Assembly: GCA_963663765.2 (NCBI GenBank)
Contig: CAXXUA010000005.1
Span: 1,440,001-1,504,000 of the forward strand
Origin: Candidatus Poribacteria bacterium
Lineage (GTDB): Bacteria > Poribacteria > WGA-4E > WGA-3G
Direction: 5' to 3'
Length of the DNA: 64,000 bases
A model generated the notes under the pieces. It did not search any database. It worked only from the letters and a program-made list of their open reading frames with translations, and had not been told where the DNA came from. This document shows positions 17,358 to 57,223 of this stretch, piece by piece. Both the position numbers and the translations under genes were made by a program. Each line of letters opens with the position of its first letter. Position 1 is the first letter of the stretch.

Positions 17358-17573
17358 CAAACTTTATGAAGATTAATTTATTAATTCGGTAATAAATATT
17401 CCTACACGGTAGGCGGGGAATGCCTAAATGGCATTCATACCCGGGAAATGCCTAAATGGCAATCATACCGTTGATTACTTGATTTGGTGCTTTGTAAGCG
17501 CGCTGTTGGAACTTGAAGTGCCGGCGTGCTTACAAAGCACACCTACCAGGGTGGGTTAGATAAAATTACCTAA
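17358..17573. mobile_element. MITE family C, left part (REP1 inverted pair plus micro-insert); right part apparently at 25473-25502
   Basis: CAAACTTTATGAAGATTAAT end; similar to the reverse of the 56523-56793 copy; breaks off at CTGACATTTTTCA. Confidence 0.7.
17415..17486 (+). repeat. Micro-insert (2 hairpin units + 2 octamers) inside REP1
   Basis: GTAGGC|GGGGAATGCCTAAATGGCATTCATACC...TTGATTTG|GTGCTTTGTAAGCGCGC. Confidence 0.9.
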
Positions 17574-48346: not shown

Positions 48347-49050
48347 ATGAACATTCAACATCCTAATAGTGACTATGTTTACAACGCGTTGTTACGATAC
48401 AATTGCCTTCCTATAGGTAAAAAACATCCAGATAATATACCTTTCAAGGCTTTTTCCACTGCAGATTTTACACCTGATATTGCAAATGAATTACTTGAAG
48501 TATATCAAAGACAGGACTTACGAACCGAACGGTAGGCGGGGAATGTCTAAATGGCATTCATACCGTTGATTTGGTGCTTTGTAAGCGCGCTGGAAACCCA
48601 AAAAATGCTGAAAATAACATCATTTTCGTCGTAATTCTTGACTAAAGCATGAAAACTGCGTAAGTCCTGAAAGAAAAAGAAATGAAATAGAGAAAGTTAC
48701 AGGTTATGATCAAATTGAATATCATGCTACTCGATTTAACCTTGTAACTCGACTTTTTCATATACCACATCCCTCTCCTTACGCACGTCTATGCAAAAGC
48801 ATATCAAACCACTGGGATAAACTATCAAATATATGTGAAAATCCTAATAGCCGCGAAAAACCGGGAAAATATAATAGACATTATAATGTCTATTAATACT
48901 ACAATCGCACCTGATTCTTATTATCAGTGTGATCGGTACTGGATTCTACTTCATGAATTAGTGTCAGACTGTCCAAAGTTCAAACGTTACCTATGTGATT
49001 CTGGATTAAAATTTCTGAAAGGGAAAAAGTGCGATTTATACAGTCAATAG
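48347..49050 (+). pseudogene. DRT4/Abi-like reverse transcriptase remnant (MITE insertion plus internal deletion)
   Basis: Excising MITE A and one TSD gives ..ALLRYNCLP..FSTADFTPDIA..GYDQIEYHATRFNLVTRLFHIPHPSPYARL..HW; then jumps to C-terminal DRYWILLHEL; no YxDD core. Confidence 0.6.
48512..48669. mobile_element. MITE family A with a 36-bp micro-insert (48538-48573) in its REP1
   Basis: TIRs; 5-bp TSD AAAGA; GTAGGC|GGGGAATGTCTAAATGGCATTCATACCGTTGATTTG|GTGCTTTG. Confidence 0.92.
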
Positions 49051-54613: not shown

Positions 54614-54893
54614 GGATTCTCCTAATGTATGTTATATTTCTAATGTATCTTACGATGGAATAATGGTTCAGATTTCAATATTTTTTCAGATGTAATTATA
54701 GCAGAATAATGGTAAATTTTCACTACGAAATATTAGGCAGGTTGATTTTGTTTTCCGCATTTTAGCTGTTTCCTGAGAAAATCGCGACCGGGAAGTCGTT
54801 CCTACCGCGGGGTTTCTTTAATGAACTGACTTTCAACAAAGTTGCATCGTGACAAATTGAATGCCTCTGTTTACACATCATCTTCATTTGACA

Positions 54894-55011
54894 CAGGGTT
54901 ATTCAGTTTTCCTAATTTTTGGATTATTGAAAAAGAAACCCCGGTAGGAGCGACCTCCCGGTCGCGATTTTCTCAGAAAAAAGCTAAAATACCTAAAACT
55001 GAAAAACCCTG
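54894..55011. mobile_element. MITE family D (a reversed partial copy lies at ~54755-54820)
   Basis: TIRs, REP2, 9-bp TSD CATTTGACA. Confidence 0.9.
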
Positions 55012-56522: not shown

Positions 56523-56793
56523 CAAACTTTATGAAGAATAATAAATAAATGAGGTAATACTATCCAACCCAACCTTTGTAGGCGGGGAATGCCTAAATAG
56601 CATTCATACCCCGGGGAATGCCTAAATGGTATTCATACCCGGGGAATGCCTTAATGGCATTCATACCCGGGGAATGCCTTAATGGCATTCATACCGTTGA
56701 TTTCTTGATTTCTTGATTTCTTGATTTGGTGCTTTGTAAGCACGCCTACCGGGTGAAAAATATTTATTACCGACTTAATAAATTAATCTTCAT
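56523..56793. mobile_element. MITE family C with micro-insert (4 hairpins + 4 octamers, 56584-56728)
   Basis: CAAACTTTATGAAGAATAAT...ATTAATCTTCAT; REP1 split at GTAGGC|GTGC. Confidence 0.8.
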
Positions 56794-56912
56794 CTGGAGC
56801 AAAGAAAGTTTCTGTTTTGGTCGTTGAGTCTTGATTTGACCTTCCCAAACACGTCCAGAATGTCACTCCTACCTTAAGCAACATATTTTAGTATGTGTGC
56901 TTAATCAACAAT

Positions 56913-57223
56913 TATGGTGAAATTTGAAAATAAGTTTACATTTCTACAATTTGCAATATTTGCTGTCATGTCAGTATGCTATTCATTTATTTATTTGGTA
57001 GGAGCGACCTCCTGGTCGCGACTGTTTTGATACATGGTCCCTGTACGGTCGTGACCCGGGGAATGCCTAAATGGCATTCATACCGTTGATTTCTTGATTT
57101 CTTGATTTCTTGATTTCTTGATTACTTGATTTGGAGGTCGCTCCTACCAACGCAGGGTACGGTCCCGACTGGGAGGTCGCTCCTACCTGGGCAAGTGTGT
57201 AATTAATTCCATAATTTACCATA
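56913..57223. mobile_element. Family E element with micro-insert (57058-57133) in REP2
   Basis: Reverse homolog of 4239-4431; GTGACCC|GGGGAATGCC...TTGATTTG|GAGGTCGCTCCTAC. Confidence 0.8.

Follow-up and report, generated by a model that had tools for sequence, protein, structure and literature searches.

A 36-nt hairpin unit that appears to insert into REP sequences and other small repeats of Poribacteria

The window analysed here is a stretch of 64,000 nt from a Candidatus Poribacteria genome (G000:C5:1440001-1504000; the genome has 6.35 Mb in 15 contigs and is 97.8% complete). Four loci in it carry a small repeat unit, 36 nt in its basic form, within repetitive extragenic palindromes (REPs). 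We suggest, with a probability of roughly 0.55, that this unit is an independently inserting, non-autonomous micro-element that acts at the DNA level and spreads mostly by hitch-hiking on other repeats. It would appear to rank among the smallest insertional DNA elements so far described.

The suggestion is based on repeats that occur both with and without the unit. Empty forms are known for REP1 and REP2, the two REP families split in the window, and for two further small repeats, here called host2 and host3. Filled copies exceed empty ones by 36 nt, with neither terminal inverted repeats (TIRs) nor a target-site duplication (TSD) and with a junction ambiguous by one base. These differences support the non-autonomous micro-element lacking TIR and TSD that a first-pass annotation of the window had proposed. 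Collapsing 465 contexts from many Poribacteria-like genomes left 92 distinct and unrelated flank contexts, many of them homologous to each other over just 1-3 nt, in line with the several independent insertions implied by the same annotation. A single bond also holds many contents, with at least 12 combinations among 37 copies of REP2 and a similar variety in host3. The copy numbers are mobile-like, from 1 to 466 in the 40 genomes of the genus.

Anatomy of the unit and its copies in the window

In brief, the basic unit has a conserved GGGG at its 5' end, which is followed by a 7-bp hairpin, then ATACC and finally the octamer GTTGATTT. We refer to the hairpin module as H and to the octamer as T, and HnTn gives the count of each in a composite. 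At all four window loci H is 26-27 nt long (GGGGAAT-stem/loop-ATTCATACC) and is followed on its 3' side by octamers of the form GTTGATTT(CTTGATTT)n. The 19-nt hairpin core has eight matches in the window at up to three mismatches, against 0.03 expected, and none of 100 shuffles attained eight. The ends of the unit, GGGGAAT.. and ..GTTGATTT, are not inverted repeats, and no target duplication was found, which sets the unit apart from miniature inverted-repeat transposable elements (MITEs). As single-stranded DNA a single unit folds weakly (-3.5 kcal/mol); the H4T4 composite at 56584-56728 has a strong DNA fold (z = -5.0).

The four loci had been reported in the first-pass annotation, and they carry the unit as H1T1, H2T2, H4T4 and H1T6 (Table 1). 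At three of them (17415, 48538 and 56584) the flanks read GTAGGC|..|GTGCTTTGTAAGC, where the bar marks the bond. Excising 36 nt or multiples of it restores intact REP1 sequence, without a TSD and with a junction ambiguous by one G, so that the annotated splitting of REP1 at a single bond holds at all three. At the fourth (57058-57133) the unit lies in REP2 with an imperfect junction, again as annotated, and the empty loops are TCCC, TCCT or TCAC. The host of the 48538 unit is a MITE of the 122-bp type with CAGGACTTACG inverted ends (48511-48672), of which G000 has 278 copies.

Contigs from public runs of three different studies cross from unique flank into the 48538 unit, where they end (X1 record 1 at 48572, X2 record 9 at 48558, X6 record 17 at 48557). 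The inserts are thus not an artefact of one assembly alone. The sample with the best DNA coverage may be the same as the source sample of the window. Very high summed contig depth was seen at 54880-55010 and 56537-57198, and contigs of four public runs break there; these stretches mark additional high-copy repeats.

Genome-wide census and covariation of the stem

Counts in this and the next three sections refer to G000 unless other genomes are named. A genome-wide census gave 646 H modules in 518 composites. One H is present in 419 composites, two in 85, three in 10 and more in four. The octamer is absent from 44, single in 269, double in 157, triple in 30 and present four to six times in 18. 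The two modules had been thought to vary independently, which is not what the census gives: 264 of the 419 composites with one H have one octamer, 66 of the 85 with two H have two, and H2T1 was found just five times. With copies of like flanks and content collapsed, H and T numbers have a Spearman rho of 0.40, and T2 occurs in 25 of 42 classes for H2 against 50 of 183 for H1. The numbers of H and octamers are coupled. Additional H modules would come together with an additional octamer, as nested 36-nt additions, and further octamers may arise via 8-nt slippage. A single plain insertion of 36 nt at the H|T joint of H1T1 was rejected as the origin of H2T2, because the joint base is C and a G would be expected.

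Several sub-families are distinguished by the inner part of H, namely GCCTAAATGGC (156), GCCAAAAGGC (137), GCCTTAATGGC (64), GCCATACGCGC (42), ACCATAAGGT (25) and GCTTTATAGC (20). Across the 7-bp stem, 4234 of 4410 cells are Watson-Crick. Doubly compensated stems are found as GAATACC/GGTATTC (24 copies), GAATGCT/AGCATTC (27) and GAATGTC/GACATTC (2). We also aligned 142 matches (59 distinct rows) from G000 and many other genomes with a covariance model. In this alignment, which was fitted to the model and for which most loci were fetched by a pattern fixing the 3' arm, 98.2% of the stem cells pair and four of the seven pairs are altered on both sides. None of 500 shuffles reached the observed pairing, and a slid control did not come near it either. 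Compensatory changes preserve the H stem. The overall pattern is one of invariant single-stranded flanks, a covarying stem and a free loop.

Hosts, insertion bond and nesting

The unit had been annotated as occurring only inside REPs. Genome-wide this fails, since just 244 of the 518 composites lie in the two GTAG-type REP families; the others are in other small repeats or in copies of the unit itself (Table 1). The related claim that REP hairpins are the target stands in part: the unit is found at defined bonds in hairpin repeats, but these are not confined to REPs, and the unit is independent of REP1 and REP2.

Uninterrupted REP1 is present in 320 exact copies and in 1116 copies at up to one mismatch. 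Empty REP2 (GTAGGAGCGACC-loop-GGTCGC) accounts for 603 tagged hairpins, with the loops TCCC (376), TCCT (137) and TCAC (49). Host2 has 54-71 empty copies against 72 filled ones, with the filled/empty bond CCATAC|GCGC. Further clean bonds are GTAGGC|GTGC in REP1, GAGACC|CGCCC in host3 and GAACTCC|GATTCC in another REP. The added sequence is a 35-nt core plus G in REP1, host2 and the last-named REP, and the core plus C in host3.

At hosts with known empty copies, the unit is inserted at the step C|G (or ACC|N) and in one polarity. The preceding base is C in 78 of the 92 distinct contexts from many genomes, and the following base is G in 59. Most often the unit sits immediately after the GTAGGC tag, in several different REP families; the other sites are loops of small hairpins. 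Behind GTAGGC, 215 units have the same polarity and one the opposite genome-wide, so the fixed polarity relative to the REP tag that was noticed in the window is a general one.

A survey of hosts outside G000 covered 76 composites of other metagenome-assembled genomes (MAGs) and 26 composites of three further genomes. The GTAGGC tags that precede the unit there belong to five or more different REP hairpins. It was also found in the loops GGCGAGGC|CTTCCTAACCTCGCC (several MAGs), GCCCCC|CGGGGC and GGGAACTCC|GGATTCCC, in AATCC|GG..GATTCAGACA repeats and in CGCTCTACCC|GACCTAC. A host peculiar to a single genome is AATCCGCGTAATCC|GGTGTAATCC in G001.

The unit also enters loops and joints of its own relatives. 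Host2 is a paralogous small unit, CCGCCAAATGCC-ATAC-GCGCATTTGGCG with a GTTGATTT tail and covarying stem variants (e.g. C2:108700-108800 and, in other MAGs, loci L024, L042 and L046). At least two unit families thus have the octamer tail in common, since host2 carries it whether empty or filled by H. The AT-rich loop of H is a target in turn, being split by a MITE with TGAAGATTAAT.. ends (e.g. C2:89668..89841, and many others). In about 30 copies another small hairpin, AGCATGC-GCGTATG-GCATGCT, stands in place of part of H. The unit is thus both guest and host of other repeats. In intergenic DNA at C6:362459-362788 and C5:1377877-1378260, 8-10 complete 36-nt units follow one another head to tail, next to genes for WD40, DDE-transposase, dehydrogenase and LptF/G proteins.

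Table 1. Copies of the unit in the window, its hosts, and IS200/IS605-type elements (positions refer to the window unless a contig of G000 is given; composites are counted in G000)
Feature	Position	Strand	Description
Basic unit H1T1 in REP1	48538..48573	+	36 nt
H module of the 48538 unit	48538-48564	+	Stem GAATGTC/GGCATTC with one T.G pair; loop TAAAT
Octamer GTTGATTT of the 48538 unit	48565-48572	+	Junction G at 48573
GGTAGGC tag of interrupted REP1	48531..48537	+	48538 unit lies directly 3' of tag
Displaced REP1 hairpin part (GTGCTTTGTAAGCGCGC)	48574..48592	+	3' of the 48538 unit
Host MITE with REP1 and unit	48511..48672	+	Inverted ends CAGGACTTACG..CGTAAGTCCTG; empty form 122 bp
Composite H2T2 in REP1	17415..17486	+	H at 17415-17441 and 17443-17469; octamers 17470-17485; G 17486
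Composite H4T4 in REP1	56584..56728	+	H at 56584, 56613, 56641 and 56669; four octamers 56696-56727; G 56728
Composite H1T6 in loop of inverted REP2	57058..57133	+	Flanks GTGACC-C..G-GAGGTCGCTCCTACC
Host: REP1, behind tag (site 1)			159 composites
Host: REP1, second bond TTGTA(A>G)GC|GCGC (site 2)			43 composites
Host: REP1 with deletion			4 composites
Host: REP2 loops			38 composites, some reversed relative to tag
Host: host2, loop of related hairpin unit with own GTTGATTT tail			72 composites
Host: host3, another repeat			19 composites
Host: directly 3' of another unit's octamer			36 composites, giving 36-nt tandem arrays
Host: after a third H-like module			32 composites
Host: other contexts			115 composites
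IS200/IS605-type elements	C5:687134-690487; C3:286218-289571; C5:549367-552720; C5:351559-354873		Four locations in G000

Probable own insertion, and hitch-hiking

Own insertion and hitch-hiking both take place. We built a tree of 211 clean copies of the 122-bp MITE, of which 135 are empty, 43 are filled at site 1, 21 at site 2 and 12 at both. Filling of site 1 requires 35 changes on this tree against 48.6 +/- 2.3 under shuffled labels; the 35 changes are an upper bound, since a tree from 122-nt repeats is weak. After a founding insertion, most copies would have arisen passively, through transposition of the MITE or REP that carries them and through tandem duplication.

Several observations weigh against independent insertion. 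Filling of site 2 is strongly clustered on the MITE tree, with 12 changes against 31.0 +/- 1.4 for shuffled labels. Much of the copy number is hitch-hiking, and loop variants are linked to the host: TTAAT is found in 38 of 72 host2 copies, TAAAT in 54 of 159 at REP1 site 1, and AAAA as the sole module in 26 of 43 at REP1 site 2. The junctions vary between hosts in the added base, G in some and C in others. Filling of REP2 costs a T of the loop, and the junction at 57058 is not clean. At REP1 site 2 filling accompanies a change of A to G, with GTAGGC:GTAAGC at 34:4 in filled and 5:1207 in empty copies. A rule of insertion at hairpin apices is weak; stems of at least five are present in 12% of contexts against 5.7% of re-paired controls. 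An orthologous filled/empty pair for the unit alone was not seen among relatives, which are of different species, or among public-run contigs. The latter stop at repeats, so a filled or empty allele of the unit is not visible in them. Apparent "joints" in these contigs were rejected as alleles, as they are cross-matches between repeat copies.

These points would suit an origin with no mobility of the unit's own. A few ancient chance fusions of unit and repeat would have spread only by transposition of the host REP or MITE, by tandem duplication, and by gene conversion over short homology or template switching among repeats with a common GTAGGC tag or common ACC ends. In addition to the host-linked loops and the clustered filling, chiefly of site 2, the tandem multiplication of filled REP units (e.g. 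C6:322738-323300) is consistent with it. Such arrays have a period of 78-82 nt, and arrays of units one of 36 nt. The junctions moreover have 1-7 nt in common with donor contexts (GTAGGC, ACC-C) and vary by one base, and a dedicated enzyme was not found. We nevertheless consider this explanation unlikely, because many of the 92 contexts have no mutual homology beyond 1-3 nt and one host site holds many different contents. Hosts such as the G001 repeat and the GGCGAGGC|CTTCCTAACCTCGCC loops are peculiar to single genomes or to several MAGs. The ends of the unit are near-identical across species, although the genes of these species have a DNA identity of only about 70-80%.

At 48511-48672 the polymorphic item is the whole host MITE. 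G022, the nearest species genome, lacks it at the orthologous site. A contig of run X7 joins 48511 to 48680, without the MITE; strains about 97% identical were seen in runs X6 and X7.

Orientation, genes and regional polarity

Genes flank 509 composites on either side, and 462 of these composites are intergenic. The other 47, which appeared to be in genes, lie near the ends of open reading frames (ORFs), in spurious ORFs over arrays, or are chance H-like matches. There is no co-orientation with genes (152 vs 148). This lack of linkage to transcripts, together with the lack of any match to the reverse transcriptase family RVT_1 (PF00078) in the 97.8% complete genome, in a search where control genomes were positive, argues for an element that inserts at the DNA level.

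The same data bear on a spread through RNA, in which a reverse transcriptase would turn transcripts of the unit into DNA at nicks. Such a route is said to have been proposed earlier for small dispersed repeats of cyanobacteria, and the first-pass annotation had named reverse transcriptase as one possible agent. It could account for the fixed polarity, the lack of a TSD and the reiterated modules, and G.T pairs are slightly above A.C on the written strand (41 vs 25 distinct types). The difference is not significant, and with no RVT_1 match and no orientation preference relative to neighbouring genes we regard the RNA route as very improbable. Public RNA runs contained 6-7% of the words.

Units follow a regional strand polarity. 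On C5 300-1823 kb the strand ratios are 96:22 for the unit, 220:26 for empty REP1 and 188:52 for empty REP2, and on C6 300-521 kb they are 2:52 for the unit and 6:84 for REP1. The polarity is opposite to a weak GC skew and gene-strand bias. Since this regional bias is found in empty REP1 and REP2 as well, the unit may inherit its polarity from them. Units agree with the local REP1 polarity at 108:10 in REP1 and 41:8 in host2, and only weakly in other hosts (41:26, 12:7 and 6:4), which indicates that the polarity is mainly a property of the REPs. The orientation of units in G022 looks mixed among the matches listed.

The polarity of empty REPs was also observed on C4:1-760000 (20:158). It flips inside contigs C3, C4 and C6 for empty REP1 and REP2; examples of polar regions are C5:300000-1823873, to which the window belongs, and C6:300000-521609. 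It may mark the direction of replication.

Spread among genomes

We searched 159 genomes of the order for the exact 17-nt H/T junction; a reversed control pattern gave no match. The junction was found in all 40 genomes of the genus. G000 has the highest number of copies (466), followed by G017 (404), G016 (246) and G014 (232). In the sister genus 31 of 65 genomes have it, mostly in 1-2 copies. It was found in none of seven genomes of other genera of the family; the order's other three families, with 47 genomes, had it in one. In six genomes, perfect copies over 17 nt make up 50-83%. With one genome per species, a 20-nt H/T junction gave at least 94 loci; among the matches listed, 79 of 80 are from Candidatus or uncultured Poribacteria MAGs and one is from an "uncultured bacterium".

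REP1 (GTAGGCGTGCTTTGTAAGC; in the window e.g. 17487-17503 and 48574-48590) is massively expanded in G000 alone. At up to one mismatch it has 1116 copies there, whereas none of the family's 111 other genomes has more than 154, and many congeners have zero. Congeneric genomes with 96-404 units have only 0-6 empty REP1 (G016, G017, G014 and G024) and 0-4 REP2 tags (five relatives). The unit is thus older and more widespread than the REPs that it splits in the window, as relatives rich in units are nearly without REP1 and REP2.

The presence of the unit throughout the genus and its high share of perfect copies are also what a functional motif selected by the host would give, e.g. a protein binding site or a structural signal on one strand that is only seemingly mobile. 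The invariant flanks, covarying stem and free loop would agree with this, as would the regional polarity that units in G000 have in common with REPs. However, the copy number varies from 1 to 466 within one genus, the copies lie inside selfish repeats and inside each other, and their positions relative to genes are not conserved. At the orthologous site in G022 the entire host element is missing, and Rfam had no family matching the unit even at E up to 1. A selected motif is therefore, in our view, a quite unlikely explanation.

No exact match to the unit was found in viral contigs. A literature text search for the unit sequence gave, among the matches listed, no hit except a 9-mer in unrelated primers. 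Among the matches listed, papers on Poribacteria and palindromes dealt with CRISPR or general genomics only, and those on REPs and MITEs included no work on Poribacteria.

Search for an enzyme that moves the unit

If the unit inserts on its own, as we prefer to think, it would be recognised as a folded single strand and joined at the DNA level rather than through RNA. The first-pass annotation had proposed a search for a master copy beside a reverse transcriptase, HUH, RAYT (REP-associated tyrosine transposase) or recombinase gene. We looked for such a copy in G000 and found none, either at the 36-nt tandem arrays or between neighbouring composites, where genes for WD40, GFO/IDH/MocA, sulfatase and similar proteins are located. 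The IS110 family (PF01548) had no match in G000.

Y1 (HUH) transposases are present. PF01797 gave six matches in G000, namely four IS200/IS605 TnpA, one RAYT-like ORF and one broken RAYT. The RAYT-like ORF (225 aa, C4:621400-622077) lies between REP2-like arrays, and the broken fragment (C10:24997-25277) lies at a contig end right after a tandem REP1 array. The two are likely to be the cognate REPtrons of the two REP families. The IS200/IS605-type element is found as three full copies and one disrupted copy at four locations; the full copies have well-defined conserved ends, and in copy L013 a TnpA of 139 aa lies beside a TnpB-type ORF of 370 aa. No H or T motif was found within 1.5 kb of the four TnpA genes.

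Supposing that the unit does insert independently, it is tempting to suggest that a REP-associated Y1 transposase moves it in trans, which would make it a parasite of the REP/RAYT system. This is a tentative guess; it is about equally likely that the enzyme is another one, of the host or of a mobile element, that went unrecognised. Several results speak against Y1. The ends of the resident IS200/IS605 elements carry hairpins other than H. None of 18 RAYT-like loci has H modules on both sides. Y1 matches are found in 36 of the 40 genomes of the genus, but there is no PF01797 match in three genomes of good quality, G024 (closed, 131 copies), G001 (96) and G010 (109), and the fraction of perfect copies in genomes lacking Y1 (58-68%) is within the range of the others. 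Nor do Y1 genes track copy number, as G009 has 21 matches and 3 copies; G017 has one match and 404 copies. The HUH route named in the first-pass annotation is a candidate only. The phyletic pattern of Y1 genes makes the Y1 model less probable. G024 keeps GTAGGC REPs and has no detectable RAYT, so the present-day lack of RAYT leaves room for past activity.

REP2-type arrays flank nine of the 18 RAYT-like loci in relatives, and another GTAG REP flanks the one in G017. H modules were found at two of the 18, in both cases on one side: adjacent to the gene as inserts in the flanking REP at L128, and about 1.2 kb from the gene at L130.

A more specific form of the idea is that the unit is a hyper-parasite, either of the REP/RAYT system or of a still unrecognised enzyme that joins single-stranded DNA. 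In this case the 36-nt hairpin would be cut-and-pasted or copied as single-stranded DNA into a nick beside the GTAG tag, and the 36-nt single strand could enter other extruded hairpins also. We hold this to be rather doubtful. If true, the unit would be the smallest defined mobile DNA with a mapped target bond, outside the cyanobacteria and in an uncultivated phylum of sponge symbionts.

Implications

Ever since the small dispersed repeats of cyanobacteria were described, it has been a question how repeats can spread that are much shorter than the binding unit of any transposase. Comparable behaviour is now found in an unrelated phylum, and the data are unusually clean: the 36-nt unit is defined, its insertion bond is mapped, filled and empty paralogous sites number in the hundreds, and 40 congeneric genomes carry it in 1-466 copies. 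Because the unit, the bond and the paralogous sites are defined, the mechanism can be tested with oligonucleotides, candidate enzymes and sequencing of symbiont populations. It should also be noted that the units break short-read assemblies of Poribacteria MAGs at many sites and create spurious ORFs.

Comparison with known systems

The closest analogy is with the small dispersed repeats (SDRs) SDR4, SDR5 and SDR6 of heterocyst-forming cyanobacteria, which Elhai et al. reportedly described in 2008. These are said to be 21-27 nt long, with conserved ends around a common hairpin that has compensatory changes, and to occur in nested or tandem heterogeneous arrays and inside MITEs and other repeats. 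They reportedly lack TIR and TSD and are confined to one clade with very uneven copy numbers. No mover is known for them. Compared with SDRs so described, the Poribacteria unit is similarly tiny, has conserved ends around a hairpin with compensated stem variants, is nested or tandem in MITEs and other repeats, lacks TIR and TSD, and occurs in one clade with uneven copy numbers. It differs in its reiterating 3' octamer and in clearly favouring the bond that follows the GTAGGC tag in REPs. It is also found in another phylum, in Poribacteria-like MAGs, and the cyanobacterial repeat HIP1 is not enriched in G000 (29 copies); the two are set apart by description and not by sequence. The likeness to SDRs drawn in the first-pass annotation is accordingly a fair one for behaviour and does not extend to the organism.

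Like the REP/REPIN-RAYT systems, the unit is an extragenic short palindrome in more than 100 copies and is probably recognised as a single strand. On the reverse strand H has a four-base, tag-like GTAT directly before the 7-bp hairpin, and the unit has the regional strand polarity of REPs in G000. This GTAT is not among the GTAG and CGTC variants quoted in the excerpt of PMC3733652, which also reports REPs inside small palindromes. The unit differs in that no RAYT is bracketed by it, that it is abundant in three genomes lacking a PF01797 match, and that it splits REPs rather than pairing with them.

For several insertion sequences (IS), including ISPa11, ISPpu9/10 and ISRm19, REPs are described as specific, orientation-defined targets in the excerpt of Tobes and Pareja (2006, PMC1525189). 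REPs are specific and oriented targets for the unit too, but the IS treated there encode their own transposase, whereas the unit has just 36 nt and G000 has no IS110-family gene. With IS200/IS605 elements the unit shares the lack of TIR and TSD, a single polarity, entry beside a short specific sequence and, presumably, a hairpin-dependent single-strand chemistry. It has one hairpin and not two subterminal ones, the ends of the resident elements are unlike H, and there is no phyletic link to Y1.

Bacterial interspersed mosaic elements (BIMEs) and BOX elements are modular mosaic repeats that stand alone in intergenic DNA. The unit resembles them in its short modules and in their variation in number from copy to copy, and it differs in being inserted at defined bonds inside other repeats. 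BIMEs are mentioned in the excerpt of PMC2884548. The unit fails a defining feature of the SDR, REP, REP-targeting IS and IS200/IS605 families alike, and we file it as a kind of very small nested dispersed repeat, from a new phylum and with a mapped target bond and an extra octamer module.

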